From the NCBI GenBank assembly GCA_036493875.1, contig DASXPB010000054.1, positions 5,764 to 69,763 of the forward strand: a stretch of 64,000 nucleotides of DNA, written 5' to 3'. The translations under genes were made by a program, and so were the position numbers. Positions 247 through 17,659 of the stretch are shown in pieces; the stretch's first letter is position 1; each line of letters starts with the position of its first letter. This stretch comes from Thermoanaerobaculia bacterium. Lineage in GTDB: Bacteria; Acidobacteriota; Thermoanaerobaculia; UBA5066; Gp7-AA6. The notes under the pieces were generated by a model. It was not told the origin of the DNA. It did not search any database and saw only the letters and a program-made list of their open reading frames with translations.

Positions 247-1605
247 TCAGGCCGGCCCCAGCCGCTCCGCGATCAGCCGGTCGGCGCGCGCGAGGTCGAC
301 GTCGGCGATGCTCGCCGCCTGTCTCGTCAGCTCGTCGAGGATCTCCTCCTGGATCGCTCCCCGCCGCTGTGCCTCCGCGTAGGGAATCGTGTGGAACATC
401 ACCATCGAGTAGCGGGGGATGAATCGTCCGGGGTGCCTCTCCTCGAGACGGAAGGAGAGGTCCTTCTTCAACTGGAACTTCGGCTCGCGGACGGTCGACC
501 GCATCTCGACGTAGTTCTCGAGGGCCATGTCCGCGATCGCATCGGTGTTGGGCCGGCGCAGCCTCTCGAATTCGGCGAAGACGTCGTTCCACGGGCGATC
601 CGAACTCGCCTCTGCCAGGCACCGATCGAAGGCGCTGCAGTCCTCGAACGCCGCGTTCATGCCCTGCCCGTGAAAGGGAACGATCGCGTGCGCCGCGTCG
701 CCGAGGATGAGCGCCTGGTCCTCGAACGACCAGGGCTCGCACCGGATGGTCTCCAGATGGCCGGTGGGATTTCCGAAGAAGTCTTCGACGAGGCGGGGCA
801 TGATCGGAATCGCGTCGGCGAAGCGGCGCGCGAAGAGCGCGAGCACGGCCTCGGGGGTCCTCAGGGCCTCGAAGCTCTCGGCTCCTCGTTGCGGCAGGAA
901 GAGCGTGGCCGTGAAGCTTCCGTCGGCGTTGGGGAGCGCGATCAGCATGTACTCGCCTCGCGGCCAGATGTGCAGGGCGTTCTTCTCCATCTGGAACCCG
1001 CCGCCTTCCCCTCCCTTCGCCGGGATCGAGAGCTCCTTGTACCCGTGACCGAGCGGCTCCTCGTCGAGGCGTCCGCGCGTCCTCTCCAGGATCGCGGCGC
1101 GGACGGCCGAGGCGCTTCCGTCCGTCCCGATGAGGACGTCGTAGCGAGCCGCCTGCGGCAGCACCCGGCGATCATCGAAGTCGACGCCGCGGACCGTCTC
1201 CCCGAAGCGGATCGAGACTCGGCCGGTCGCCTCGGCGGCGTTCACGAGGAGCGTGTTCAGGCCGCCGCGCGAGACCGAGTAGATGACCTCGTGCGGCTTG
1301 TTCCCGTAGGGAATCAGCTTGAGCCGTCCCTCCTCGTCGTGAAGCATCCGGCCGGCCATGGGGATGAGCGCGGCGCCGACGCTGTCCATGACGCCGACCT
1401 CTTCGAGCGCCGCGATGCCGCGATTGGCGAGCGCAAGGTTGATGGATCGCCCGGCCGATCCCGCCACCGTCACGTTTCGGGGATCGGGGCGGCGCTCGAG
1501 GAGCGTCACGCGGTAGCCGCGACGGGCGAGGAAGATTGCCAGAAGCGAGCCGGCGAGACCGGCGCCGACGAGCGTGATCTCGGAAGTGGAGCGGGGGGAT
1601 TTCAG
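247..1605 (-). CDS. kmo: kynurenine 3-monooxygenase (FAD-dependent)
   Basis: The track ORF 247..1509 starts at GTG. It has flavin-monooxygenase motifs TDGSASAVR and LILGDAAHAIVPFHGQGMNAAFED. The Rossmann motif ITLVGAGLAGS is encoded upstream at 1546-1578, in frame, so I extend to CTG 1605. An in-frame stop lies at 1630-1632. The start is unresolved. Confidence 0.85.
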   Translation of the reverse strand: MKSPRSTSEITLVGAGLAGSLLAIFLARRGYRVTLLERRPDPRNVTVAGSAGRSINLALANRGIAALEEVGVMDSVGAALIPMAGRMLHDEEGRLKLIPYGNKPHEVIYSVSRGGLNTLLVNAAEATGRVSIRFGETVRGVDFDDRRVLPQAARYDVLIGTDGSASAVRAAILERTRGRLDEEPLGHGYKELSIPAKGGEGGGFQMEKNALHIWPRGEYMLIALPNADGSFTATLFLPQRGAESFEALRTPEAVLALFARRFADAIPIMPRLVEDFFGNPTGHLETIRCEPWSFEDQALILGDAAHAIVPFHGQGMNAAFEDCSAFDRCLAEASSDRPWNDVFAEFERLRRPNTDAIADMALENYVEMRSTVREPKFQLKKDLSFRLEERHPGRFIPRYSMVMFHTIPYAEAQRRGAIQEEILDELTRQAASIADVDLARADRLIAERLGPA

Positions 1606-1611
1606 GAAGCC

Positions 1612-1725
1612 CCCCTCACCCTGACCCTCTCACCCCGCTGGGGGGAGAGGTAATGTTTGGGGAGGACCTCGCCAAAGGACTCCCTCGCCCCCCGAAGGGG
1701 GGAGAGGGCAGGGGTGAGGGGGGAG
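1612..1725. repeat. GC-rich composite palindromic intergenic repeat (family 2), two inverted copies
   Basis: cccctcaccctgaccctctc (1612-1631) is nearly the reverse complement of gagagggcaggggtgagggg (1702-1721). Each half also folds locally (ccctc.cccc / gggg.gaggg). A third copy lies at 50445-50486. Confidence 0.7.
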
Positions 1726-1732
1726 AACAGGC

Positions 1733-3010
1733 TCACAGCGCCCCGCGCAGGATCTCGACGAACCGCCAAACCTCCTCGTACCGGTTGTAGAGGGGCACCG
1801 GCGCCACGCGGATCACGTCGGGCTCCCGCCAGTCGCAGGTGACGCGGGAGGCTTCGAGCTTCTCGAGGACCGATCTTCCCGGACGCTTCGACTTGACGCG
1901 CAACGAGAGCTGACAGCCGCGCCGGCTCGGGTCCGCCGGGGTGAGGATCTCGACCGCATCGCCGAACTCGCGCTCAAGAAGCCATTCGAGGTACGCGGTG
2001 AGGCGCAGCGATTTCTCCCGCAGCGGCACGATTCCCCCCGCCTCCAGGAAGACGTCGAGCGAAGCACGGATCGACGCGAGCGAGAGGATCGGAGGGTTCG
2101 AGAGCTGCCATCCTTCCGCGCCGGGGATCGGCTGGAATCCGCTCTCCATCCGGAAGCGCGACGCCTTGTCGTGTCCCCACCAGCCGGCCAGGCGCGGCAG
2201 GTCGGCTCGCCGTCCGTGCCGCTCGTGGACGAAGCATCCGCCCACCGAGCCGGGGCCCGAATTGAGGTACTTGTAGGTGCACCAGACGGCGAAGTCGACG
2301 TTCCAATCGTGGAGGCGCAGCGAGAGGTTTCCGGCCGCGTGGGCCATGTCGAACCCCACCACACATCCCTTCGCATGGGCGACTCGGGTGATCTCCTCGA
2401 TGTCAAAGGCCTGGCCCGTGTAGTACTGGACTCCCGGGAGCATCACCAGCGCGATCGAGCCCTCCTCGCGCTGGAGGACCTCGGCGATCTCTCCGGCGTC
2501 GATGGTGGCGCACCCCTTTCGCGGCCGCAGCCGCATGAGCGCCTCGGCCGGGTCGAAGCCGTGGAAGCGGGCCTGGGACTCGAGCGCGTAGTCGTCCGAG
2601 GGGAACGCGTGCTCCTCGAGGAGGATCCGGTGCCGCTCGCTGGTGGGCCGATAGAAGCTCGCCATCATCAGGTGGAGGTTGACGGTGAGCGAGTTCATCG
2701 TCACGACTTCGCCCGGGGAGGCGCCCACCAGTCGGGCCATCGGCTCCGCGAGGAGCTCGTGGTACGGCATCCACGGGTTCTCGCCGGAGAAGTGCGCCTT
2801 GACGGCGAGCCGCTTCCACTTCTCGAGCTCCTCCACGACGTATCTCGGGGTTCTCTTCGGCATCAGCCCCAGCGAGTTGCCGGCGAAGTAGATCTCCTCC
2901 TCGCCGCTGTCGCTCCTGGGAATGCGGAATTCGTCCCGGAACCGCCCGATGGGATCGTCGCGATCCAGGGCGACCGCGAAGTCGCGTCCGGGCTGGAAAG
3001 GCTCGCTCAC
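1733..3010 (-). CDS. kynU: kynureninase (PLP-dependent)
   Basis: 425-aa ORF with a GTG start. Motifs: DDPIGRFRDEFRIP, NSLTVNLHLMM, and DFAVWCTYKYLNSGPG, which carries the PLP-lysine context typical of kynureninase. Confidence 0.9.
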   Translation of the reverse strand: MSEPFQPGRDFAVALDRDDPIGRFRDEFRIPRSDSGEEEIYFAGNSLGLMPKRTPRYVVEELEKWKRLAVKAHFSGENPWMPYHELLAEPMARLVGASPGEVVTMNSLTVNLHLMMASFYRPTSERHRILLEEHAFPSDDYALESQARFHGFDPAEALMRLRPRKGCATIDAGEIAEVLQREEGSIALVMLPGVQYYTGQAFDIEEITRVAHAKGCVVGFDMAHAAGNLSLRLHDWNVDFAVWCTYKYLNSGPGSVGGCFVHERHGRRADLPRLAGWWGHDKASRFRMESGFQPIPGAEGWQLSNPPILSLASIRASLDVFLEAGGIVPLREKSLRLTAYLEWLLEREFGDAVEILTPADPSRRGCQLSLRVKSKRPGRSVLEKLEASRVTCDWREPDVIRVAPVPLYNRYEEVWRFVEILRGAL

Positions 3011-6173: not shown

Positions 6174-8846
6174 TCACTTCGGCGCAACCCCCGCCCTCCA
6201 ATCGAGGACGACCGTGAGCGGGAGCTCGTCGGCGACGACCTCGGGAATCGTGACGAGGAACCGCTTGCCGTCCTGCGACATGCTGAAACCGAAGCGGTCT
6301 GCGCTGAACGCCTGTAGCCGCGGGCCCTTGAGCTTGAAGAGCGCCGTCGGCGATCCCACCTGGAGCGCCGGAGACGTTCGGACCGGAACCGACATCATCT
6401 GTCGGTCGGCCGAGACGTAGAAGAGCTCGCGGCCGTCCGGGCTCCACGTCAACAGCAAGGCGCCGGCGGGCGATACCCTGGTCTTCTCGCCCGGCCCCGG
6501 ATAAGGCATGACGTACGCCTCGGAGCGGCCGGACTCTCCCGAGAGAAAGGCGACGAAACGGCCGTCCGGCGAGAAGCGGACCTGCCCGATCTGGGAAGGA
6601 GACTTCAGAAGCAGAACCGGCTTGGCCGAACCAGAAAGGGGCCCCGCCCAGGCTTCGTAGACGCTCCTTTCGTCGCGCTCGGTATAAGCGAGGGTGCCCC
6701 CATCCGGGGAGATGTCTTGCGCCTGCTGGAACAATCCGGTCTTAGGGAAGAGCGGCTCCTCGTTCCCTGTCGCGAGATCCCGGAGGGAGAGCTGCGGCGA
6801 GCCTCCCCGGGCCACCGAGTACACGATGCGCTTTCCTTCCCGCAGACCCAGCGGGGATAGGTTGCCGCCCACCTCCGAGGTGATTCGCGTCTCGACCCCG
6901 CGTTCCAGATCGAAAGACCAAATGTCGGGTGTCCCAGTCTCCGGCCGCGTGCGACCGAAGAAGACCCTCCGGCCATCCGGAGCAATCGAGAACGTCCTGT
7001 ATCCGCCGGGCGGCCCGACGGTCCCGACCTCGCGGCCGGTCCGGTCGAGCCAAACGAGACGGCTCACGTCGTCCCGGTCCTGATAGACCAGGACGCCGGA
7101 GCGCGACAACGCGAACGCCGCGGCGAAGGTCGTCAAGAAGTATCGGACATGCTCGGCGACCGAGAACGGCTCGCCCGACAGGCGTCCGGCCTTCCAGTCG
7201 AAGCGCTGTCCCAGCAGCGTCCCCTCCCGGCAGAACACGAGATAGCCGGGGTCGCAATACTGCACGGCCGAGACCATCGGCGCGAGAACGCGATGCGCTC
7301 TGCCCGGCTCGGCCAGCATCAGGTTCCCCGTGTTGCCCTTGAGCCGGACCAGATAGAGAAAGCGCTCGCCGTCCGGCAGAAACCACGGAAAAACCATCCG
7401 CAGCTCCCCGCGCGAAGGCTCGACTCGAGCGACCTCGACCGGCTCCCCGCCCGCAGAGGAGACGCGGTAAATCGCCGAGCTCTGGACACCGGAGAAGAGA
7501 ATGTCGCCGCCACGGCCCCAGGTCCCCGACTTGTCACCGCCGGCCGGAACATCACAGATCGGAACCGCCGCGCCGCCCGCGACGTCCACCTTCTTGAGCT
7601 TCAGCCCGCCGAAGAAACCGATCGATAGGCCGTCCGGCGACCAGAAAAGCGTCGAGGCGTCCTCGGTGCCCGGAATCGGGCGCGCTTCCAGCGCCGAGAG
7701 CCGCCGGACCCAGATGCGCGGCCCTGACTGCGCATCCGAGGCGACGTAGGCGATCTGCGAGCCGTCGGGCGCAACGGCGATGAATGTGCCCCCCGGCCTG
7801 TAGTTGAAGGCGCCGTTCTCCGGCGGCGGCACGCCGAATCGGACCAGGGCAGCCGGGGATCGTGCCGCCGCCGGCCGTAACAGCAGCGCCGCCGCGGCGA
7901 CGGCGGCGAGGACGGCGGCAACCGCCCAGGGCAGCCATCCGGCGCGGCGACGCGCCGGAGCGCCCGGCTCCGACGTGGGAAGAGAGACCTGTTCGGAGAT
8001 GGACCGGAGCTGCAAGGCGACGTCGCGAGCCGACTGCCAGCGCTCCGCCGGATCTTTGGCGAGGCAAGTCCTCACCAGCCGATCGAGAACCGGGGGGCTC
8101 ATGGGCTGAATCGAAGAGACCGGTGGAGGCTCCGAGCGCAGGATCGACGCGATCAAGGAGGCCTGGCTCGAGCCCGCGAACGCCTTCTTGCCGGTCGCCA
8201 TCTCGTAGAGCACGGAGCCGAAGGCGAAGATGTCCGTCCGCGCGTCGACTTCCCTTCCTTCGAGCTGCTCGGGCGCCATGTAGGGAATCGTGCCGAGGAG
8301 AGTCCCTTGCGTCGTCAAGTCCCTCGTGCGAGTCGGAGCCGACGTCTGGTCATCGATCGGCACGGCCGGGGCAGTGGCCTTCGCGAGCCCGAAGTCCAGT
8401 AGCTTCACTCCGGTCGTCGTCAGCATCACGTTGCCGGGCTTCAGGTCCCGATGGACGATTCCCGCGGCGTGCGCTGCCCCGAGAGCCTCGGCGATCTCGG
8501 TCCCATAGCGCAGGCTCTGCTCCAGGGAGAGCGCGCGGAAGCCGATGCGATGCGCCAGCGTGTCGCCCTCGAGGTACTCCATGACGAGGTACTCGATCTC
8601 CCCTTCGCGACCAACGTCGAAAAGAGCGCAGATGTGCGGGTGCGAGAGCTTGGAAATTGCCCTGGCTTCGCGCTCGAAGCGCTCGCGCAGCTCCGGCGAC
8701 GAGGAGAGCTCCTCGGGAAGGACCTTGATGGCGACCAAACGGTCCAACCGCGTGTCCCTCGCTCGATAGACCTCGCCCATCCCGCCCGCCCCGATCGGAG
8801 CGAGAATCTCGTAGGGCCCGAGGCGACTGCCGGTGGGAAGAGACAT
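6174..8846 (-). CDS. Ser/Thr protein kinase with a transmembrane segment and a C-terminal TolB/PD40-like beta-propeller
   Basis: 890 aa. Kinase motifs: [43 protein letters not shown]. One TM helix (WLPWAVAAVLAAVAAAALLL). Repeated SPDG motifs (WSPDG, IAPDG, ISPDG, FSPDG, WSPDG). Confidence 0.9.
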   Translation of the reverse strand: MSLPTGSRLGPYEILAPIGAGGMGEVYRARDTRLDRLVAIKVLPEELSSSPELRERFEREARAISKLSHPHICALFDVGREGEIEYLVMEYLEGDTLAHRIGFRALSLEQSLRYGTEIAEALGAAHAAGIVHRDLKPGNVMLTTTGVKLLDFGLAKATAPAVPIDDQTSAPTRTRDLTTQGTLLGTIPYMAPEQLEGREVDARTDIFAFGSVLYEMATGKKAFAGSSQASLIASILRSEPPPVSSIQPMSPPVLDRLVRTCLAKDPAERWQSARDVALQLRSISEQVSLPTSEPGAPARRRAGWLPWAVAAVLAAVAAAALLLRPAAARSPAALVRFGVPPPENGAFNYRPGGTFIAVAPDGSQIAYVASDAQSGPRIWVRRLSALEARPIPGTEDASTLFWSPDGLSIGFFGGLKLKKVDVAGGAAVPICDVPAGGDKSGTWGRGGDILFSGVQSSAIYRVSSAGGEPVEVARVEPSRGELRMVFPWFLPDGERFLYLVRLKGNTGNLMLAEPGRAHRVLAPMVSAVQYCDPGYLVFCREGTLLGQRFDWKAGRLSGEPFSVAEHVRYFLTTFAAAFALSRSGVLVYQDRDDVSRLVWLDRTGREVGTVGPPGGYRTFSIAPDGRRVFFGRTRPETGTPDIWSFDLERGVETRITSEVGGNLSPLGLREGKRIVYSVARGGSPQLSLRDLATGNEEPLFPKTGLFQQAQDISPDGGTLAYTERDERSVYEAWAGPLSGSAKPVLLLKSPSQIGQVRFSPDGRFVAFLSGESGRSEAYVMPYPGPGEKTRVSPAGALLLTWSPDGRELFYVSADRQMMSVPVRTSPALQVGSPTALFKLKGPRLQAFSADRFGFSMSQDGKRFLVTIPEVVADELPLTVVLDWRAGVAPK

Positions 8847-9002
8847 CAGTTGGCAAGGATTCTATCCGCGGAGGTTGGCCTGCGCTGGAAAGGCTCGCTC
8901 GACGCTATCCGGTTCCTCCGAAGCGCTCAACGGGAAGTCCGAGCCAGTCTCTGCGCCGGCGCGCAGCAACTCGACCGCCTCCGCGAACGCCTTCAGCCAA
9001 TC

Positions 9003-9941
9003 TCAGGCGCTCTTCAACCCCTTCCAGTGCTTCAGCCGGGTCGCGATCAACTTCGCGCGTTGCTTGTTGTCGGTCCCATCGAGAATGGTCAGATCCGCCG
9101 GGTCGGCGCGCAGATAGACACCGGATGTACGCGCGTTCAGTGTCGGATCCGTGTCCGCTCGGGTGATCCAGTACCCGGCCGCGCGATCGGCGGACTCCGT
9201 CAGAATCTCTCCCGTCCCGTAAAGCTGTGGAGCGGCCGGGTCCAAGGGGCGCTCCAGCCGGTGATAGTAGAAGACGCCCGAAGGCTCCTTCTTTTCCTTC
9301 ACGGCCTCGCTCCAGTATCTGGCCGACAGCTTGCCATCATCCTGCCAGGCACGGCCGGTCACTTCCAGCGCGCCGTCGCGGCCTCGCGAGACTCTGAGGA
9401 GGCTCACGGCGGAGGGCTCCCGCGCGCTGCGCTCGGTCAGGGAGAACTGCCACCACAGGCCCTCGATGCGGGCGATGTGCCCCTCGTTCTCGATCGCCTT
9501 CCGGAGCTTCTGGTTGACCGCATCCGTCTCCGCCGCGGTTTCCGCGGTCGCCGCGTCGCCGTACCGGATGGACGTCAGTCCGAGGAGATCGGTCGGGAGC
9601 TTCGAGCCGTTGGCGTGGAGGATGAAGGTCCGGCGCATTCCGAGGACTCCGCCGAAGAGGCCGGCTTCGAAGACGACGTTGTCCCGCGGAGAGGCCTGAC
9701 CGGACTCCGGCGAAGGGGTTGAAGGGGAGGTGGCCGCCGTCCAATCGTCCTGGGCGAACACGAACGCGGCGAAGTCGACTTCATGCGCGAGCTCGACCAG
9801 GCGCTCGATCGTCGTCGTCCCGGGATTGAAGGAGGTCGTCCACGGATCGACGTGCGCGACGTCTTCGAGACCGCGCGTCAGCGCCTCCACCAGCTTCGCC
9901 TGCTTTCCCGACGAGCCCAGAAAGATGCGAGGTTTGTCCAT
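9003..9941 (-). CDS. TIR-like domain protein (PF10137/COG4271-type) with an uncharacterised C-terminal domain
   Basis: Internal ATG at 9941 of the 519-aa track ORF, in frame and preceded by GAGGAG. The N-terminus reads RIFLGSSGKQAKLVEAL..DFAAFVFAQDD..SPRDNVVFEAGLFGGVLGMRRTFIL..KLPTDLLGLT, which matches the bacterial TIR-like signature. The longer track ORF overlaps the AraC gene in another frame. Confidence 0.7.
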   Translation of the reverse strand: MDKPRIFLGSSGKQAKLVEALTRGLEDVAHVDPWTTSFNPGTTTIERLVELAHEVDFAAFVFAQDDWTAATSPSTPSPESGQASPRDNVVFEAGLFGGVLGMRRTFILHANGSKLPTDLLGLTSIRYGDAATAETAAETDAVNQKLRKAIENEGHIARIEGLWWQFSLTERSAREPSAVSLLRVSRGRDGALEVTGRAWQDDGKLSARYWSEAVKEKKEPSGVFYYHRLERPLDPAAPQLYGTGEILTESADRAAGYWITRADTDPTLNARTSGVYLRADPADLTILDGTDNKQRAKLIATRLKHWKGLKSA

Positions 9942-9964
9942 CCGCTCCTCTACTCCCCAGCGGG

Positions 9965-10975
9965 TCAGCCCGCTCGGAACTGTCTCGGCGTCGCGCCCAC
10001 GAGTCGTCGAAACGTGCGCGCGAAATGGCTGGGGTTGTCGAAGCCTGCCGACAAGCCGGCCTCGAGGACGGAGTGCTTCGGGTTTCGGAGGGACTTCTTG
10101 GCCCGTTCGATCCGTTGCGACAGAACGTATTGATGGGGAGGGCGCCCCATGCTCCGTCGAAAGAGCTCCGAAAAGTAATGAGGGCTCATTCCAGCGACGC
10201 CGGCAAGATCCGCGAGGCCCAGGTCCCCGGTCAGGTTCTCGCCGATGTAGTCGAGCACCCTCCGAAGACGGCGTCCCGGCATCCCTCCCACGGGCGTTCG
10301 GGGCGGCGCGCGTCGGACGCCGTAGCGACCCACGAGGTACACGGCCAGCGCATTCGCCAGCGACTCGCCGTACAGGCGCCCGGCGGGCGAGCCTTCGGAG
10401 AGATCCGTCCGCATGGCCTGGAGAATGGACGCGATCTGCGGATCGACCAGGGCCCAGTGCTCGACGAGCTCGATGTCGCCGCGGCTCATCGTCTCGTCCG
10501 TCGAGCCTTCCAGGAGATAGGGGCCGATCGCCACGGCCAGCCGGCGGGTCGGACCCTCCCATCGGACCTCATCGACCGTGCCGCGCGGCAGGATGAACGT
10601 CGTTCCCGGGACGGCTTCGAGCCTCTTCAACCGGCCCCGCGTGCTGACCTCGTACATGACGGACCCGGAGAGGACGACGTGCAGGAAGATCTCCGGGTGC
10701 TCATGGCGCTCGATGAGGCAGGCCGGAACCGCATATTCCTCGACGGCAATCTGCCGCCATCGCACACCAGTGCTCGACAGCCTTGGGGTGGCTTCCAGGA
10801 ATCGCGTTCGCCTGCCCTGACGGAGGAGGTGAACCCGGGGAAGAAGAACGCGCTCGGCGGCTCCGGAAGCGTGGGAGACGCTCCCTCCTGACGGGTCACG
10901 AAGATGCGAGAAAGCGGTGGCCAATCCTGCCTCCGCGATTGGGCCCGGGCCTTCGCCCAGGCGAGAACCGATCAT
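9965..10975 (-). CDS. AraC-family transcriptional regulator (cupin-like N-terminal domain plus C-terminal HTH)
   Basis: 336 aa. The C-terminal region [43 protein letters not shown]...[24 protein letters not shown] is a typical AraC double-HTH region. Confidence 0.85.
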
Positions 10976-11079
10976 CAGGAGCCTATCGCAAAGAGAATCG
11001 GAGGATTTGTAAAGTTTCGGTCGATCGGAACGTCTTCGCTCCCGGCCCGCGAATAGCCTCGATGAAGAGAGGAGACCCC

Positions 11080-11976
11080 ATGAGCTTCGTGACGACCAAA
11101 GACGGCACCGAGATCTACTACAAGGACTGGGGCCCCAAGAACGCGCAGCCGATCGTCTTCCATCACGGCTGGCCGTTGAGCGCCGATGACTGGGACACCC
11201 AGATGCTCTACTTTCTCGGGAAGGGGTATCGCGTCGTTGCGCATGACCGGCGCGGCCATGGCCGCTCGAGCCAGGTGAGCGACGGCCACGACATGGACCA
11301 CTACGCTGCGGACACAGCCGCGGTCGTCGAGCACCTGAATCTGCTCGACACCATCCACATCGGGCATTCGACGGGCGGAGGCGAGGCCACGCACTACGTC
11401 GCGCGTCACGGGAAGGGCCGTGTCGCCAGGTTGGTACTCATTGGCGCCGTACCGCCGCTCATGCTGAAGACGGCTTCCAATCCGGGAGGCCTGCCCATCG
11501 AAGTCTTCGACGGTCTCCGGCAGCAGCTCGCCGCCAACCGGGCGCAGTTCTACGTGGAGTTCGCGAGCGGTCCCTTCTACAGCTACAACCGGCCGGGAGC
11601 GAAGCCGTTGCAGAGCGTCATCGACAACTGGTTCCGTCAAGGAATGATGGGCGGCGCGAAGGCGCACTACGACGGCATCAAGGCCTTCTCGGAGACGGAC
11701 TTCACCGAGGACCTGAAGAACATCGACGTGCCGACCCTCGTCATGCACGGCGAAGACGACCAGATCGTTCCGGTCGCGGATTCCGCGCCGCTCTCCTCGA
11801 AACTCCTGAAGAAGGCGACTCTCAAGGTTTACAAGGGGTACCCGCACGGCATGGCGACGACGCACGCCGACGAGATCAATCCCGAGCTTCTCGCCTTCAT
11901 CGAGGAAGGTAAGGCGGCGCGGGCGACGACTCGGCCGAGGAGCAGCGGTCCGAGCCCGGCTCCTCCGGCGAGCTGA
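11080..11976 (+). CDS. alpha/beta hydrolase, non-haem haloperoxidase/arylesterase-like (tandem copy 1)
   Basis: ATG 11080 follows GAAGAGAGGAGA. Motifs: HHGWPLS, the nucleophile elbow GHSTGGGE, and HGEDDQIVP. 298 aa. The upstream part of track ORF 10783.. has no support. Confidence 0.85.
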
Positions 11977-12031
11977 GTCAGGCGTCGACACGGAACCTGA
12001 ACGTCAAACAACCGAAAGTGGAGGAGAGCCC

Positions 12032-12928
12032 ATGAGCTTCGTCACGACCAAAGACGGCACCGAGATCTACTACAAGGACTGGGGCCCCAAGAACGCGCAG
12101 CCAATCGTCTTCCATCACGGCTGGCCGTTGAGCGCCGACGACTGGGACACCCAGATGCTCTACTTTCTCGGGAAGGGGTATCGGGTCGTCGCGCATGACC
12201 GGCGCGGCCATGGCCGCTCGAGCCAGGTGAGCGACGGCCATGACATGGACCACTACGCTTCAGACGCCGCGGCGGTCGTCGAGCACCTGGATCTGCGCGA
12301 CACCATCAATATCAGCCATTCGACGGGCGGAGGCGAGGCCACGCACTACGTCGCACGCCACGGCAAGGGTCGCGTCGCCAGGCTGGTGCTGATGTCCGCC
12401 GTGCCGCCGCTGATGCTGAAGACCGCCGCCAATCCGGGCGGCATACCCATCGAGGTCTGGGACGGACTCCGGCAAGGGCTCGCCGCCAACCGTGTGGAGT
12501 TCTACCAGCAATTCGCGAGCGGTCCCTTCTACGGCTACAACCGGCCGGGCGCGAAGGTGTTGCAGAGCGTGGTCGACAACTGGATGCGCCAGGCCTTGAT
12601 GGGCAGCGCGAAGGCCCAGTACGACTGCATCAAGGCCCTCTCGGAGACCGACTTCACCGAGGACCTGAAGATCATCGATGTGCCGACCCTCGTCATGCAC
12701 GGCGATGACGACCAGGTCGTCCCGATTGCGGATTCCGCCCTGCTCTCCTCGAAGCTGCTCAAGAAGGGCACTCTCAAGGTGTACAAGGGATACCCGCATG
12801 GCATGCCGACGACCCACGCCGACGTGCTCAATCCCGAGATCCTCGCCTTCATAGAGGAAGGTAAGGAGGCGCGGCCTGCGGCTCGGCCTCGGAGCGGAGG
12901 ACCCAGCCCGGCTCCGCCGGCCAGCTGA
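12032..12928 (+). CDS. alpha/beta hydrolase, non-haem haloperoxidase/arylesterase-like (tandem copy 2)
   Basis: 298-aa paralogue of 11080..11976. The first ~76 residues are identical, and both share the Pro-rich tail [13 protein letters not shown]. Confidence 0.85.
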
Positions 12929-12954
12929 GGCGCGCAGTCCGTTTCGGCTGATTT

Positions 12955-12981
12955 CAGCGGCGGCGGCGTCCGCCGCCGCTG
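12955..12981. terminator. GC hairpin between convergent genes (possible bidirectional terminator)
   Basis: cagcggcggcgg (12955-12966) pairs perfectly with ccgccgccgctg (12970-12981) around a 3-nt loop. It lies between the stop at 12928 (+) and the stop at 13019 (-). There is no clear U-tract. Confidence 0.35.
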
Positions 12982-13018
12982 CCTTCGGCCCATCGCTTGC
13001 GGGGCCGGCGCCATCGCC

Positions 13019-13222
13019 TCAGTCCTTCAGTACGAAGGTCACCTTGAGGGTCACGCGATACTCCGTGATCTTGCCGTTCATGACGATGGCCTTCTGAGAC
13101 TTCACCCACGCCGCCCGGACGTTCTGCAGCTTCTTGTTGGCCCGCTTGATGCCCGCGTCGACGGCATCGTCGAAGCTCTTCGAAGACGAGGCGATGATTT
13201 CGGTGACCTTTGCGATGGACAT
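13019..13222 (-). CDS. dodecin-family flavin-binding protein
   Basis: 67 aa. MSIAKVTEIIASSSKSFDDAVDAGIKRANKKLQNVRAAWVKSQKAIVMNGKITEYRVTLKVTFVLKD matches the dodecin pattern. GGAGGAGC lies upstream of the ATG. Confidence 0.8.
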   Translation of the reverse strand: MSIAKVTEIIASSSKSFDDAVDAGIKRANKKLQNVRAAWVKSQKAIVMNGKITEYRVTLKVTFVLKD

Positions 13223-13312
13223 AGCTCCTCCTGCCCCGGCGAGGACCGGGACGGTCCAGTGATATCACGGGCAGAATCGCTTCCGAGTCGTGAGTCTGCG
13301 CGGACTCCTTCG

Positions 13313-14344
13313 TCAGCGGCTGAAGCGTGCGGCGGGCAGTCCGAGCCACTCGAGCGCCGTGCCGTGGAGCAGCCGTGCGCGCGTCTCGTCGGGGAATCCA
13401 CAAGACTCGATCAGCTCTCCCGGGCGAGCCTCGCCGAGCGGGAAGGGATAGTCGCTACCGAGGGCGATCCGATCCGGACCCATCAGGTCGACGAGGTACT
13501 GAAGCATCCGCGGGTCGTGCACGAGCGAGTCGAGCGTGATCCGCCCCAGATACTCGCGCGGGGAAACGTCGTTGACGACGGCGCAGAGATCGGGCCGCAC
13601 GTCGAAACCGTGGGCGATGCGACCGATCGTCGCCGGAAACGCGCCGCCGCCGTGCGCGAAGGCGATCCGGAGCGCCGGCAGCCTCTCGAGCACCCCGCCG
13701 AAGATGAGCGAGCAGATCGCGAGCGAAGTCTCGGCGGGCATCCCGACGAGCCAGAGGAGCCAGTAGCGCGTCATCCGATCGCGGCCGGCCATCTCCCAGG
13801 GATGGACGAAGACGGCGGCGGAGAGCGACGCGGCCGCCTCGAAGATCGGGAAGAGCTCCGGGCTGTCGAGATTCGCCCCGTTGACGTTGGTGCCGATCTC
13901 GATCCCCGCGAGGCCCAGCTCACGCACGCAGCGCTCGAGCTCGCGGATCGCGAGGTCGGGCGCCTGCATCGGAATCGTTCCGAGGCCGACGAAGCGCCTG
14001 GGATGTCCCGCGACGACGCCGGCGATGTGGTCGTTCAGGTGCCGCGCGAGCTCGAGCGCCGGGGCCGGATCCGCCCAGTAGCTGAACATGACCGGCACCG
14101 TCGAGAGGACCTGCACGCCGACGCCCGCCGCGTCGCACTCCGCGAGCCGCGCGTCGACGCTCCAGCTGTTGCTCTCGATCTCGCGGAACAGGGAGCCGCC
14201 GATCGTCATCCGCGCGCGGCCGCCCTCCTGGTGCTCGATCTGGACGAATCGTTCGGCGCCCGGCGCGTTTCGAAAGTCGGGCAGCCTCTCGGGAAGGATG
14301 TGGGTGTGGACGTCGATCTTCAGCAAGTCAGGCGCGATTTGCAC
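13313..14344 (-). CDS. nbaD: 2-amino-3-carboxymuconate-6-semialdehyde decarboxylase (ACMSD, amidohydrolase superfamily)
   Basis: Motifs: [72 protein letters not shown]. These align closely with ACMSD. The start is GTG 14344 or TTG 14326. Confidence 0.85.
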
Positions 14345-14855
14345 GAGCGGGCGCGGGCATCACCGTGCCGCACTTCTTACAGGTGCGCTTCTTCTCGTCA
14401 GCGAAGAATCGGTCGAAGATCGGAGGGAAATCCTTCTCGACGTTGTGGAGCGTGAAGTACTCCTCGTACAGCAGATTCGTGCAGTGATCGCAGTACCACT
14501 GGAGCCCGTCCTTCTCGTGCGGGAGCCGCTTGCGCTCGATGACGAGACCGACCGAGTTGGGCATTCGCTGGGGCGAGTGTGGGACGCGCGGCGGATGAAG
14601 GTAGATCTCACCGGCGCGGATCGGGACGTCCACGACTCTCCCGTTCTGGATCGTCTTGAGGACCATCTCGCCTTCGAGCTGGTAGAAGAACTCGGGCCCC
14701 TCGTCGATGTGGTAATCCTTGCGGCTGTTCGGTCCGCCGACGACCATCACGATGAAGTCGTCTTCCTCGAAGACCTGCTTGTTGCCGACCGGCGGCTTCA
14801 GAAGGCTCCGGTGCTCGTCGATCCACTTCTGGAAATTCAGCGCCTTCGATTCCAT
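14328..14855 (-). CDS. nbaC: 3-hydroxyanthranilate 3,4-dioxygenase
   Basis: 175 aa. Cupin motifs [21 protein letters not shown] and [10 protein letters not shown], plus a C-terminal Cys pair set (WYCDHC...CKKCG). Confidence 0.9.
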
Positions 14856-14877
14856 GGCTCGCGGCTAGTATATCGGC

Positions 14878-15276
14878 GTGAATCCGCCCTCGAAGAAGCC
14901 GGCGTCGTCCACCGTTTCCTCCCGTGCGCCGCGGCCCCTCGGTCCGTATCCGCACGCTCGCCGGCTCGGTAGCCTGGTCTTCCTCTCCGGCATCGGGCCG
15001 CGGCATCCGAAGACCGAGGAGATTCCGGAGGGCATCGAGGCCCAGACGCGCGCGTGCATCGAGAACGTCCGGGTGATTCTCGAGGACGCCGGGAGCTCGC
15101 TCGAGAAGGTGGTCGACGTGACGGTCTTCCTGACGGACATCGACCGCGACTTCGCCGCATTCAACCGGGTCTACGGCGAGTACTTCGAGGGAATCCGGCC
15201 GACGCGAACGACCGTCGGCGTCGTCGCGCTGCCGGTTCCGATCTCGGTCGAGCTGAAGGTCATCGCCGAGAGTTGA
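14878..15276 (+). CDS. RidA/YjgF-family protein (candidate 2-aminomuconate deaminase)
   Basis: 132 aa with a GTG start. Motifs: PLGPYPHARRLGSLVFLSGIG, VDVTVFLTDIDRDFAAFNRVY, RPTRTTVGVVALP. The role is inferred from pathway context only. Confidence 0.75.
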   Translation: MNPPSKKPASSTVSSRAPRPLGPYPHARRLGSLVFLSGIGPRHPKTEEIPEGIEAQTRACIENVRVILEDAGSSLEKVVDVTVFLTDIDRDFAAFNRVYGEYFEGIRPTRTTVGVVALPVPISVELKVIAES

Positions 15277-16376
15277 ATCGGAATCCCGCTCTCAGTCTTC
15301 CGCAGCTTCGCCGCTACGCGATTGCGCGAAGTCTCTTCAAGCCCACCAGCCTGTCGCGGGCCATCGAGCGCCTCGGCTTCGTCCAGGCCGACCCGGTGCG
15401 CGCGCCGGCTCGTGCGCAGGATCTGATCCTCGGGCACCGCGTCGAGGGCTATCGCGCGGGCGAGCTGGAGCGCCGCTACCCGCGCCTGGCGATCGAAGAA
15501 GACTTCTTCGTCAACTACGGCTTCCTGCCCCGCGAGACCCTGGCCCTGCTGCATCCGCGCGGGAGGCCGATCCCCTGGCGGGCCTGGGATCCCGAGATGG
15601 AGGCGCGCTCTCGGACGGTGCTGGCTTTCGTGCGCCGGCATGGACGCACGGGCTCCAGGGATCTGCAGGCGCATTTCGACCATGGACGCATCCAGCGCTG
15701 GGGCGGCGACCTGAACGTCGCCACCCATCTGCTGGAGGGCCTGCACTATCGCGGGCTGCTACGCGTGGTGCGCCGCGAGTCCGGCATCCGCGTCTACGAG
15801 GCGATCGAGCACCCGCCGCGGGACGGCGGCCCCGGAGTCCGGCGCGCGCGCGCCGGGCGGTTGCTGGACATGGCGGTACGGCTCTACGCGCCGCTGCCTG
15901 CGGCGAGTCTGGGATATCTCGGCGCACTCCTGCGCTCCGGAGTGCCGCACCTGGCCGCCGAAGTGCGGCAGGTCCAGGAGAGCGCCGGCTCGCGCTATCC
16001 CCATGCCCGGGTCGATGGCCTGCTGTGGTTCTGGCCGGAGGGCGAGAAGCCCGAGGCGGCGCGGCATCGGGTCGACGACAGGCTCCGCTTGTTCACACCC
16101 TTCGACCCGGTGGTCTGGGACCGCCGGCGCTTCCAGCTGTTCTGGGGCTGGGAATACAAGTTCGAGGCTTATCTGCCGGCCCACAAGCGCCGCATGGGCT
16201 ACTACGCGATGCCCATGCTCTGGGGCGAACGAATGCTGGGGTGGGCCAACCTGAAGGTGGCCGATGGACGGCTCCGGCACGAGCTCGGGTTCGCGGGCGA
16301 GCGGCCGCGCGGCCGCGCGTTTCAGCGCGCGCTGGACGAGGCGCTGCAGCGGATGCAGGAGTTCCTGGGTCTCTAG
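15273..16376 (+). CDS. YcaQ/AlkZ-family winged-helix DNA glycosylase-like protein (DUF1006)
   Basis: TTG 15273 overlaps the RidA stop (TTGA). The N-terminal LGFVQADPV carries a Q-x-D motif as in YcaQ. The C-terminal region reads YLPAHKRRMGYYAMPMLWGERMLGWANLK. The upstream part of track ORF 15054.. overlaps the RidA gene. Confidence 0.7.
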   Translation: MNRNPALSLPQLRRYAIARSLFKPTSLSRAIERLGFVQADPVRAPARAQDLILGHRVEGYRAGELERRYPRLAIEEDFFVNYGFLPRETLALLHPRGRPIPWRAWDPEMEARSRTVLAFVRRHGRTGSRDLQAHFDHGRIQRWGGDLNVATHLLEGLHYRGLLRVVRRESGIRVYEAIEHPPRDGGPGVRRARAGRLLDMAVRLYAPLPAASLGYLGALLRSGVPHLAAEVRQVQESAGSRYPHARVDGLLWFWPEGEKPEAARHRVDDRLRLFTPFDPVVWDRRRFQLFWGWEYKFEAYLPAHKRRMGYYAMPMLWGERMLGWANLKVADGRLRHELGFAGERPRGRAFQRALDEALQRMQEFLGL

Positions 16377-16392
16377 AGTTCCGGCGGCAGGA

Positions 16393-17499
16393 TCATTGTG
16401 GGCTCTGGAACCGGAACCCCATCCGGCTCCTCACCTCGGCCGGGAGCCTGGGAAGCGCCGAGCGGGGAATGAAGAAGCTCGCCAGCGCCGAGAGGTCCGC
16501 GAAGACCCGGTGACGCTCGGCCGCGCGGTCGAGATACTGGTGTCCCGAGGTGCCACCGGTGCCGATCCGGGTGCCGATCATCCGCATCGCCATCTGGGCG
16601 TGGCGCTGGCGCCAGGTCGTGAAGTTCCGCTCGATGTCCGCCAGGAGCGCGAGCAGCCGGAAGGGGAGGTGCAGGATCGGCTCGTCCCGATAGAGATGGA
16701 TGAGGAGCGCCGCCTGCAGCGCTCGGCGGGAGAAGTGGCGCCCGGGCGCCGTTTCGGGCTTTGCGGCGTCCTTAGCGTCCGCAAAGAGGTCCGCGAACCG
16801 GCCGGCCGTTGCCTCGACTCCCGAGAGCTGCGTCGTCTTCTCGGTTTCGGTCAGCGTGGGGTTGCTCCGGATCGAGGCGCGGTCGGCATCGAGCATGGCG
16901 TCCACCGCCCGCCGGTACTCCCGCCAGAAGTCGAAGTCGCCGAAGTGGAGGAAGGGCGTCCGTTCGAGCCAGCCCTGGATCAGGTCGAAGAGCGAGGGCT
17001 CACGCTCCGACGCCTCGGCGCGCGCGGCGTCCTCCTTCGTGAAGCGCGAAGTGTAGGGCGCGTCGTTGACCTGCAGCCGGTCCCCGCGCCGCATCCCGAG
17101 CTTGTTCTCGACCAGCCGGAACTGGACGCTCTGGAAGCCCGAGGCCGGGAACAGCGCGTCCCGGAAGTCGAGGAAGTCGAGCGGCGTCATGGTCTCCAGG
17201 ACGTCGACCTGCTGGATGAGGACGCGCTGGATCTCGACGATGCGCCCGAGCCGCAGGACGGCCTGCCCGAGGTCCTCCTCCGGGACCGGCGAGGTGCGAA
17301 ACGTGGCGAGCACCGCGTCGAGCTCCCAGATCACCTGCTTGAACCACAGCTCGTACGCCTGGTGGACGATGATGAAGAGCATCTCGTCGTGCGCCGGCTT
17401 CCCGTTCAGCGCGCTCTGCATCCGCTGGCAGGAGAGCAGCCGGTCGAGCTGGAGGTAGTCGGCGTAATAGAGGGGACCGCGAGGCTTTTCGTTTTCCAT
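16393..17499 (-). CDS. kynA: tryptophan 2,3-dioxygenase
   Basis: Motifs: YADYLQLDRLLSCQ, HDEMLFIIVHQAYELWFKQVIWE, SGFQSVQFRLVE, GTGGTSGHQYL. I prefer ATG 17499. The alternative ATG 17559 lies inside a repeat element. Confidence 0.88.
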   Translation of the reverse strand: MENEKPRGPLYYADYLQLDRLLSCQRMQSALNGKPAHDEMLFIIVHQAYELWFKQVIWELDAVLATFRTSPVPEEDLGQAVLRLGRIVEIQRVLIQQVDVLETMTPLDFLDFRDALFPASGFQSVQFRLVENKLGMRRGDRLQVNDAPYTSRFTKEDAARAEASEREPSLFDLIQGWLERTPFLHFGDFDFWREYRRAVDAMLDADRASIRSNPTLTETEKTTQLSGVEATAGRFADLFADAKDAAKPETAPGRHFSRRALQAALLIHLYRDEPILHLPFRLLALLADIERNFTTWRQRHAQMAMRMIGTRIGTGGTSGHQYLDRAAERHRVFADLSALASFFIPRSALPRLPAEVRSRMGFRFQSPQ

Positions 17500-17554
17500 T
17501 GAGCGTGCTTCGTACCATGAGGACCGAGACGATTCAAAGCGTCGAGATTGAGCT

Positions 17555-17659
17555 GTCATCCCGAGCGATAGCGAGGGATCCGTCGTCGGCAGGCTCTGAG
17601 CCGCGGCATCCGTCGGCTCGACGAGTCCGGGATCCCGTCGCTCTGCTCCCCGGGATGAC
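17555..17659. repeat. palindromic intergenic repeat, family 1 (GTCATCCCGAG...GGGATCC // GGATCCC...GGGATGAC)
   Basis: The left arm gtcatcccgagcgatagcgagggatcc and the right arm ggatcccgtcgctctgctccccgggatgac are inverted. Related copies lie at 31926-32018, 35593-35696 and 41752-41917. Confidence 0.75.

Follow-up and report, generated by a model that had tools for sequence, protein, structure and literature searches.

A TIR-like domain fused to an uncatalogued, predicted calycin-like barrel in Thermoanaerobaculia: a candidate stand-alone, ligand-gated NAD+ hydrolase

Introduction

What does a putative NAD+-degrading TIR-like domain respond to when it is fused to a receptor-like barrel that is absent from every domain database searched (Pfam, PADLOC, NCBIfam), and when no gene for a signal synthase lies beside it? 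This question is raised by a 312-aa gene in a 64,000 nt stretch of DNA from a Thermoanaerobaculia bacterium (GenBank assembly GCA_036493875.1, contig DASXPB010000054.1, positions 5,764 to 69,763 of the forward strand). The whole stretch is referred to here as the window, and window positions are counted from its first letter. Immunity in bacteria, plants and animals has ligand-gated TIR NAD+ hydrolases (NADases) as one of its central themes. To our knowledge, the characterised members of the PF10137 type all act downstream of a dedicated, adjacent nucleotide cyclase. A sequence-only reading of the locus had proposed a sensor barrel that gates a TIR-like NADase, in a single-gene or AraC-controlled module. 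The reading favoured here, at a probability of roughly 0.55, is of a stand-alone, ligand-gated NAD+ hydrolase as the gene product.

The gene and its TIR-like domain

The TIR/barrel gene occupies 9003–9941 on the minus strand, from an ATG at 9941 to a stop codon at 9003–9005. The start, the length and the upstream GAGGAG named in the sequence-only reading all hold, and the translation contains the peptides quoted there. The identical protein P0001 carries the annotation ‘TIR domain-containing protein [Thermoanaerobaculia bacterium]’. The features of the gene, with the evidence for each, are:

9003–9941, minus strand: TIR-like/beta-barrel fusion gene (open reading frame and translation)
9945–9950, minus strand: GAGGAG ribosome-binding site, 3 nt 5′ of the ATG (direct reading of the sequence)
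9561–9929, minus strand: TIR-like domain of the CAP12/Pycsar type, residues 5–127, predicted NAD+ hydrolase module (Pfam, PADLOC, PDB, conservation)
9666–9668, minus strand: GAA codon of Glu92 in the RDNVVFEAGLF motif, predicted catalytic residue (sequence, Cap12 alignment, conservation)
9474–9545, minus strand: predicted linker helix from the TIR domain to the barrel, residues 133–156 (AlphaFold2, low to moderate confidence)
9108–9461, minus strand: eight-stranded antiparallel beta-barrel, residues 161–278, predicted ligand-binding sensor (AlphaFold2, Foldseek)
9009–9101, minus strand: two predicted C-terminal helices after the barrel, residues 281–311 (AlphaFold2)

Judged by sequence comparison, the TIR-like assignment is secure. 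Pfam PF10137 (CAP12/Pycsar effector TIR) covers residues 5–127 with an E-value of 9.5e-23 and 80.9 bits against a gathering cut-off of 24.7, and the match spans profile positions 1–117 of 119. The PADLOC models for the ‘Effector TIR’ of the cyclic oligonucleotide-based antiphage signalling system (CBASS) and for PycTIR (E 5e-30 to 1e-24) and the NCBIfam Cap12 models (E 2e-22) match the TIR part only. Among PDB sequences, Cap12 TIR-STING (9lmq, 7un8) and PycTIR (8jsj) align with RDNVVFE.GLF in register; the same is true of the longer series SS...DF...DD...RDNVVFE.GLF...LP.DL.G when set against the solved Cap12 and PycTIR structures. The glutamate of the FE pair, singled out earlier as the expected catalytic residue, is Glu92. 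In the alignment it pairs with the Glu of 9lmq and 7un8, both Cap12 chains, and it presumably has the catalytic role, which we assign from published Cap12 work. Across 86 full-length homologues, Glu92 and the entire SPRDNVVFEAGLFGG block are at least 98 % conserved, as are 51 % of positions 1–130.

Between the DDW and RDNV motifs lies a variable Ser/Pro/Thr-rich loop, TAATSPSTPSPESGQASP (residues 67–84, window 9690–9743). It lengthens the TIR segment by 7 residues relative to Cap12 and is the least conserved part of a near-invariant domain.

The window is 68 % guanine plus cytosine (GC), and spurious long open reading frames overlap the real genes on both strands. One of 519 aa (9003–10562, minus strand) runs from the AraC interior through the TIR gene, and an antisense one of 423 aa (8451–9722, plus strand) overlaps the TIR/barrel gene. 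Such frames are typical of DNA at 68 % GC; they defeat a naive gene finder based on open reading frames, and automated annotation of the region needs care.

The C-terminal beta-barrel

For residues ~150–312, searches of Pfam, PADLOC, NCBIfam and PDB sequences gave no match even at E ≤ 10, in keeping with the earlier remark that no motif could be placed in them. An AlphaFold2 model of the domain, built on 62 sequences including distant relatives, has a predicted local distance difference test (pLDDT) score of 87.9 and a predicted template modelling (pTM) score of 0.82. It consists of eight antiparallel strands (161–278) followed by two helices (281–311), and the full-length AlphaFold2 model agrees with it for the C-terminal half. 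The strands thus bear out the earlier description of this half as beta-structured, while the two terminal helices mean that it is not strictly all-beta. Strand 1 carries an invariant G-x-W-W-Q motif, in which G161-x-W163 is invariant, and later strands carry conserved Arg and Tyr; over about 10 phyla, conservation reaches 98 % or more at 28 % of barrel positions.

Gly-x-Trp in the first strand is a calycin signature, and the predicted structure is an eight-stranded up-and-down barrel with GxW in strand 1. Calycins are also the best matches of the model in a Foldseek search of the PDB (probability about 1.0, template modelling (TM) score 0.45–0.62, E about 3e-3), among them L-PGDS (2czu), retinol-binding protein, sandercyanin, streptavidin and designed barrels. 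In the viral library BFVD, the best Foldseek match is an S-2TMbeta (Cap15-family) protein with E 1.8e-4 and a TM score of 0.59, and the second-best match is far weaker (E 4e-2). On the predicted structure, the domain is a calycin-like barrel; it is like the Cap15/OptE receptor barrel in usage and may be like it in fold, and is at most a candidate member of that family.

An exhaustive HMMER search with the barrel alone as query gave only 364 clusters at 50 % identity. The barrel stands behind two transmembrane (2TM) helices in P0199 (Maribacter), P0272 and P0285, the exact architecture of Cap15 and OptE. In P0250 and P0259 it is fused to TIR_2 and a transmembrane segment, in P0256 and P0269 to divergent PF10137 TIRs (30–38 % identity), and in P0219 it follows an unassigned N-terminus. 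A barrel that recombines with both membrane-disrupting and NAD-degrading modules shows the behaviour characteristic of the sensor domains of effector proteins, and the recurrence of the barrel on 2TM or TIR_2 plus transmembrane modules strengthens the sensor-gates-effector logic of the sequence-only reading. The S-2TMbeta barrel is the cyclic-dinucleotide receptor of Cap15, OptE and PanE (PMC12657218, PMC12657230). Its fusion to 2TM has been called obligate (PMC12657218), although rare barrel-PNP exceptions are on record (10.64898/2026.08.10.743972). A literature search for a described TIR-barrel fusion found none.

Distribution and evolution

A word-indexed search returned more than 8,000 proteins, of which the top 120 are all 76–86 % identical over their full length. 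On contigs from one genome per GTDB species, at least 436 species have a relative; the best 80 of these are 71–79 % identical to the window protein and come from about 10 phyla. Their hosts are Acidobacteriota (several classes), many Mesorhizobium species and other Alphaproteobacteria, Gammaproteobacteria, Gemmatimonadota, Nitrospiraceae, Rokubacteria, Myxococcota, Planctomycetota and Eiseniibacteriota, together with the Actinobacteria Arthrobacter, Gaiellaceae and Solirubrobacterales. The family is common in soil, the many Mesorhizobium species included.

Host loci range in GC content from 0.40 to 0.73. Gene GC follows host GC (r = 0.76), and GC at third codon positions (GC3) follows that of the flanking genes (r = 0.65). 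Median pairwise amino-acid identity is 0.76 and the median synonymous difference 0.52, with a ratio of non-synonymous to synonymous change (dN/dS) of about 0.17. For GC-biased codons, such a synonymous difference is close to saturation; the copies are therefore old residents under strong purifying selection rather than products of a recent sweep. The neighbour-joining tree is locally coherent, with Mesorhizobium, Gemmatimonadales and Pyrinomonadaceae clades, and mixed at greater depth, where for example Arthrobacter falls within an alphaproteobacterial group; this pattern suggests old horizontal transfers followed by vertical descent. Within Mesorhizobium the gene is syntenic and vertically inherited. 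Among 72,556 plasmids and 50,697 phage genomes there was no full-length homologue, only matches to unrelated TIR architectures, and none was found in IMG/VR viral contigs queried with both the protein and the family alignment.

Two shorter gene calls belong to the family. P0280 (L088:6001–6531) is a 176-aa call that covers the barrel only and is preceded by about 450 nt in which no gene was called, and P0276 (L005:10001–10798) is a 265-aa copy that lacks the first ~45 TIR residues. Both may be decayed copies or calls with a wrong start. Each adjoins a gene for a 149-aa CBS-pair protein, and a related CBS neighbour is present in loci L059 and L083.

Genomic context

Genes in 87 loci were called by a GC3-based heuristic gene finder seeded on the tblastn position, and the neighbours were then clustered. 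No gene accompanies the TIR/barrel family throughout these loci. When 138 neighbours drawn from 45 diverse loci were surveyed separately, PADLOC matches were only sporadic and the Pfam content was mostly metabolic (hydrolases, methyltransferases, short-chain dehydrogenases/reductases, FMN reductases, GNATs and CBS proteins). No cyclase and no cGAS/DncV-like nucleotidyltransferase (CD-NTase) was present among these neighbours or in the annotated contexts of homologues. In the window itself, the annotated genes up to 10 kb on either side of the TIR gene include no partner gene, and none was seen among the 25 most frequent of the 59 Pfam families of 49 window proteins, a non-exhaustive check. The earlier statement that the window lacks a partner gene therefore stands within this scope.

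A defence-island setting, which the sequence-only reading had offered as a check, is unsupported by the PADLOC and Pfam survey; the loci do not lie in defence islands, and the protein is exceptionally conserved and chromosomal, two points that are atypical for an antiphage gene. A few loci are exceptions and adjoin defence-like genes. In L030 (Steroidobacteraceae), a 460-aa SIR2_2–TIR_2 fusion and a 1,068-aa nSTAND1 NTPase are encoded at 9055–13640 on the plus strand, immediately downstream of the TIR/barrel gene, and in L029 an nSTAND1 gene is nearby. A pyrimidine-dimer glycosylase gene lies directly upstream of the TIR/barrel gene in L030.

Nicotinamide phosphoribosyltransferase (NAMPT; PF04095 plus PF18127) is the immediate neighbour in 2 of the 87 loci, in unrelated genomes. 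In the acidobacterial L055 it is encoded at 6462–7997 on the plus strand, 3 nt upstream of the TIR/barrel gene (8001–8930) and on the same strand; in the gammaproteobacterial L053 it is encoded at 8946–10871 on the minus strand, convergent with the TIR/barrel gene at 8001–8930. NAMPT recycles nicotinamide, the product of a TIR NADase, and may be the salvage partner for nicotinamide released by the enzyme. Adjacency by chance in two phyla is unlikely. A PDB search with the genes flanking the two NAMPT loci gave no further NAD genes, only an NmrA/triphenylmethane-reductase-like protein or nothing.

Tryptophan-to-NAD-precursor genes in the window had been mentioned earlier as a possible hint of an NAD connection, one that is separate from the NAMPT loci. 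The kynurenine-pathway genes flank the locus (window 247–3010 and 13313–17559), as follows:

247–1509: FAD_binding_3 monooxygenase, kynurenine pathway
1733–3010: kynureninase
13313–14326: ACMSD-like amidohydrolase
14328–14855: 3-hydroxyanthranilate dioxygenase
14878–15276: RidA
15273–16376: AlkZ-like glycosylase, inserted among the kynurenine-pathway genes
16393–17499: tryptophan 2,3-dioxygenase

Kynurenine genes and the TIR gene are co-located in only four closely related acidobacterial loci (the arrangement recurs in L010, L020 and L081). As functional context these genes were set aside: the co-location is lineage synteny among four close relatives and does not count as independent evidence. 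The AraC gene has a similar standing, and both associations are local features of one acidobacterial lineage. The genes between the TIR/barrel gene and the second kynurenine block include:

9965–10975, minus strand: AraC-family regulator with a cupin ligand-binding domain and HTH_18 (Pfam, NCBIfam AraC-type models)
11080–11976 and 12032–12928 (span 11080–12928), plus strand: two tandem alpha/beta-hydrolase genes, divergent from AraC (Pfam Abhydrolase_1, PDB)

The AraC stop lies 23 nt upstream of the TIR/barrel ATG in the same orientation, as had been noted, both genes being on the minus strand. Its start is uncertain, either 10975 (first ATG, 336 aa) or 10765 (266 aa, the public gene call on the identical contig). 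The protein has the C-terminal double helix-turn-helix (HTH_18) and the N-terminal cupin ligand-binding domain of the AraC/XylS family, with Pfam scores of 81.9 bits (E 4e-23) for HTH_18, 58.7 for HTH_AraC and 22.5 for AraC_binding against a cut-off of 21.1. Because the gap holds no terminator-like site, co-transcription is likely, and the two genes are probably co-transcribed. An AraC gene is upstream in 8 of the 87 loci, including L003, the window copy; all belong to one acidobacterial clade, the gap is 23–24 nt wherever it is intact, and the spacing is kept in 7 related loci. Restriction to a single clade rules AraC out as the defining partner of the module, the role for which its co-occurrence had been proposed as a check.

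The two tandem hydrolases of the window are 86 % identical to each other, are of the non-haem chloroperoxidase/esterase type, and match PDB 1zoi, 4dgq and 1a88 at E 1e-121 to 5e-127. In 14 loci from at least four phyla, an orthologue (55–83 % identity) is encoded no more than 8 kb from the TIR gene, which makes the hydrolase the most frequent recurrent neighbour of the family; in L066 it is directly upstream with a 13-nt gap. For a family with a few copies per genome, the rough expectation is about 1 locus in 87, against the 14 observed. The linkage looks real and is unexplained.

Beside the hydrolases lies a 67-aa dodecin gene (13019–13222, minus strand). The order dodecin-hydrolase-(AraC)-TIR recurs in 7 loci, including the alphaproteobacterial L064, in which dodecin is directly upstream of the TIR gene. 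Five Ser/Thr protein kinases are encoded in the window. One of these, an 890-aa kinase with PD40/Tricorn-type beta-propeller repeats (6174–8846, minus strand), is 156 nt downstream of the TIR gene, and similar kinase fusions are found near the TIR/barrel gene in other loci (a cluster of 6 loci).

Proposed mechanism and alternative explanations

A mechanism consistent with these observations would use the N-terminal TIR domain, with Glu92 as catalytic residue, as the enzyme module and the C-terminal barrel as a binding site for a small molecule, most probably nucleotide-derived. Binding or loss of the ligand would lead to self-association of the TIR domains and formation of composite active sites, by analogy with TIR-STING, TIR-SAVED and PycTIR. 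NAD+ would then be cleaved to nicotinamide and ADP-ribose, resulting in growth arrest. Given the lack of a linked synthase and the tight conservation of both domains across phyla, the most plausible ligand is a conserved molecule made by the host, or possibly one produced universally on infection or stress, rather than the product of a dedicated neighbouring cyclase. In this Thermoanaerobaculia lineage, the gene would additionally be transcribed behind a small-molecule-responsive AraC regulator.

Several points weigh against a stand-alone, ligand-gated NADase. Both the NAD+ hydrolase activity of the TIR domain and the binding of a ligand are predicted by analogy with relatives. The TIR half of the full-length AlphaFold2 model has pLDDT below 50, probably on account of a shallow alignment, and only the barrel model is relied on here. 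Cap15 PDB entries (7N34) are not in the top 50 Foldseek PDB matches, which are lipocalins and streptavidin; the ligand could accordingly be non-nucleotide, for example hydrophobic. Nor do sequence comparisons join the barrel to the Cap15/OptE receptors. VnOptE was taken from the supplement of the Panoptes paper, its PF18153 family was gathered, and the two families were compared with hhalign; the result was not significant (probability 1 %, P 0.05), and 27 of 300 permutations in a column-shuffle control reached the real score. PF18153 itself matched neither the window barrel nor 7 distant relatives at E ≤ 10. The non-significant alignment is collinear, pairing GxW with GxW, FYYWxGExPxDP with LYYxYRSxPKxP, and SGYfTTR with SGxYYTDR; with the P value and shuffle result just given, sequence homology to Cap15/OptE is not claimed. 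Finally, the neighbour calls depend on the authors’ own heuristic gene finder, and the NAMPT adjacency, in 2 of 87 loci, was noticed post hoc.

What purpose a stand-alone NADase would serve is a separate matter. A physiological role is suggested by the conservation of the gene, its residence on the chromosome, its metabolic neighbours and the NAMPT links; an immune role is suggested by the domain families and by the few loci with defence-like surroundings. A tentative extension, held at well below even odds, is that the gene is an ancient chromosomal ‘NAD+ switch’ of soil bacteria, a TIR NADase domesticated for physiology and not primarily for phage defence. The signal sensed by the barrel would be an endogenous metabolite or a housekeeping second messenger, NAD+ would be lowered for growth arrest or dormancy under stress, and NAMPT-type salvage would be the way back. 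If true, an immune-type TIR NADase would be seen in a bacterial housekeeping role for the first time, and a new family of cytoplasmic receptor barrels would be defined.

Among explanations that differ from a stand-alone enzyme, the one that survives best, while still unlikely, is that the protein works in trans as an orphan abortive-infection effector for a CBASS-, Pycsar-, Panoptes- or Thoeris-like pathway, with the synthase elsewhere in the genome and the barrel reading its messenger. PF10137 TIRs are known so far from CBASS and Pycsar effectors, the best match of the barrel in the viral library is a Cap15-family receptor, and a few loci (L030, L029) adjoin defence-like genes. Yet no synthase is present in any examined neighbourhood, the neighbours are overwhelmingly metabolic with sporadic PADLOC matches, and the gene was not found in the plasmid, phage and IMG/VR collections. 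Identity of 71–79 % across phyla with ameliorated codon usage is unlike that of arms-race genes, and synteny and vertical inheritance in Mesorhizobium likewise argue against a trans-acting immune effector.

It is rather improbable that the TIR domain is not a bulk NAD+ hydrolase but makes a signalling nucleotide (a cyclic ADP-ribose isomer or other ADP-ribose adduct) or processes another nucleotide or nucleoside, the barrel binding substrate or product or serving only in oligomerization. Thoeris TIR domains do produce signalling molecules (10.64898/2025.12.03.692087), the historical annotation says only ‘predicted nucleotide-binding protein containing TIR-like domain’, and for the window protein NADase activity is extrapolated from its relatives. 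However, the solved or named PF10137 relatives are NAD+-degrading effectors (Cap12 is an NAD(+) hydrolase in NCBIfam), no conserved receptor or effector gene adjoins to which a signal could pass, and recombination of the barrel with pore-forming 2TM modules fits a sensor, not substrate binding.

Least probable is a direct phage sensor, in which a phage protein, a peptide or a metabolite made by the phage binds to the barrel and turns on the NADase in single-gene abortive infection: the gene has no partner, TIR NADases are typical abortive-infection effector modules and some calycin-fold proteins bind peptides (anticalins are among the Foldseek matches), but phage-protein receptors normally diversify, whereas here conservation of at least 98 % holds for 28 % of barrel and 51 % of TIR positions over about 10 phyla with differing phages, and the gene was found neither in a defence-island context nor on mobile elements.

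Significance

The family sets itself apart by the combination of an effector with an uncatalogued receptor barrel, no synthase partner, and an evolution that runs counter to that of arms-race genes: more than 70 % identity between Arthrobacter, Acidobacteriota and Mesorhizobium, host-matched codon usage, and no occurrence in the plasmid and phage collections searched. Two outcomes can be envisaged for a stand-alone, ligand-gated NADase of this kind. It may be an unusually constrained single-gene immune sensor of a universal infection or stress metabolite, or it may place immune-type TIR NADases in ordinary physiology. Either outcome, if true, would identify a new small-molecule signal and a new receptor fold.

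Comparison with known systems

The sequence-only reading had found no match to described TIR systems, and this holds on comparison: the window protein has no STING, SAVED or cyclic-nucleotide-binding domain and no cyclase neighbour. The closest system in overall layout is Cap12 (TIR-STING; 7un8, 9lmq). The two share a PF10137-type N-terminal TIR with RDNVVFE.GLF, about 32–39 % identical over 125 residues, a size of about 310 aa, and the order of N-terminal TIR followed by C-terminal ligand receptor. They differ in that the C-terminus of the window protein is not STING but a predicted eight-stranded barrel, and in that no CD-NTase is adjacent. The NCBIfam Cap12 equivalog NF050172 matches residues 3–150 only, at 79.9 bits against a cut-off of 450. 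The CD-NTase (SMODS) gene that would place the locus in CBASS was found neither within ±10 kb, nor in annotated contexts, nor among the 138 neighbours of 45 loci.

PycTIR (8jsj) has a TIR of the same subfamily (PADLOC E 1e-24; PDB E 1.6e-8) and follows the same principle, in which a TIR NADase is fused to a receptor for nucleotides. Its own receptor is an N-terminal cyclic-nucleotide-binding domain and its TIR is C-terminal, whereas in the window protein the order is reversed and the receptor would be the barrel. PycTIR models match via the TIR part only (profile 150–286 against residues 2–154). For Pycsar, neither a Pfam match to a cyclic-nucleotide-binding domain nor a pyrimidine cyclase neighbour was found; for Thoeris, there was no ThsB match in PADLOC or Pfam and no conserved adjacent gene.

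With Cap15, OptE and PanE (S-2TMbeta, PF18153), the window protein shares short collinear motifs (GxW; YYxxxxxPxxP; SG[YF][YFW]T[TD]R); its predicted barrel, like theirs minimal, eight-stranded and of about 120–130 residues, may have the same fold, and their architecture of 2TM plus barrel is found in the distant window-barrel relatives P0199, P0272 and P0285. In contrast, the window protein has no transmembrane helices, its N-terminus is a soluble TIR enzyme, and two extra helices follow the barrel; sequence similarity is not significant, and the gene has no adjacent CD-NTase, mCpol or mDAC. Calycins of the lipocalin and avidin type give the best structural matches in the PDB and share GxW in strand 1 and a helix after the barrel. 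Identity to them is 9–16 %, with no Pfam lipocalin match, and the window protein differs in being cytoplasmic and fused to an enzyme.

Host c-di-AMP is sensed by a stand-alone TIR-SAVED effector that works with no cyclase of its own (10.1101/2025.06.19.660554). Its sensor is SAVED rather than a barrel, and TIR-SAVED naturally resides in a CBASS operon, whereas the window family has never been seen with a synthase. What the two would have in common is the central feature of the reading favoured here: TIR-SAVED provides a precedent for a cyclase-free TIR NADase that reads a conserved second messenger of its host.

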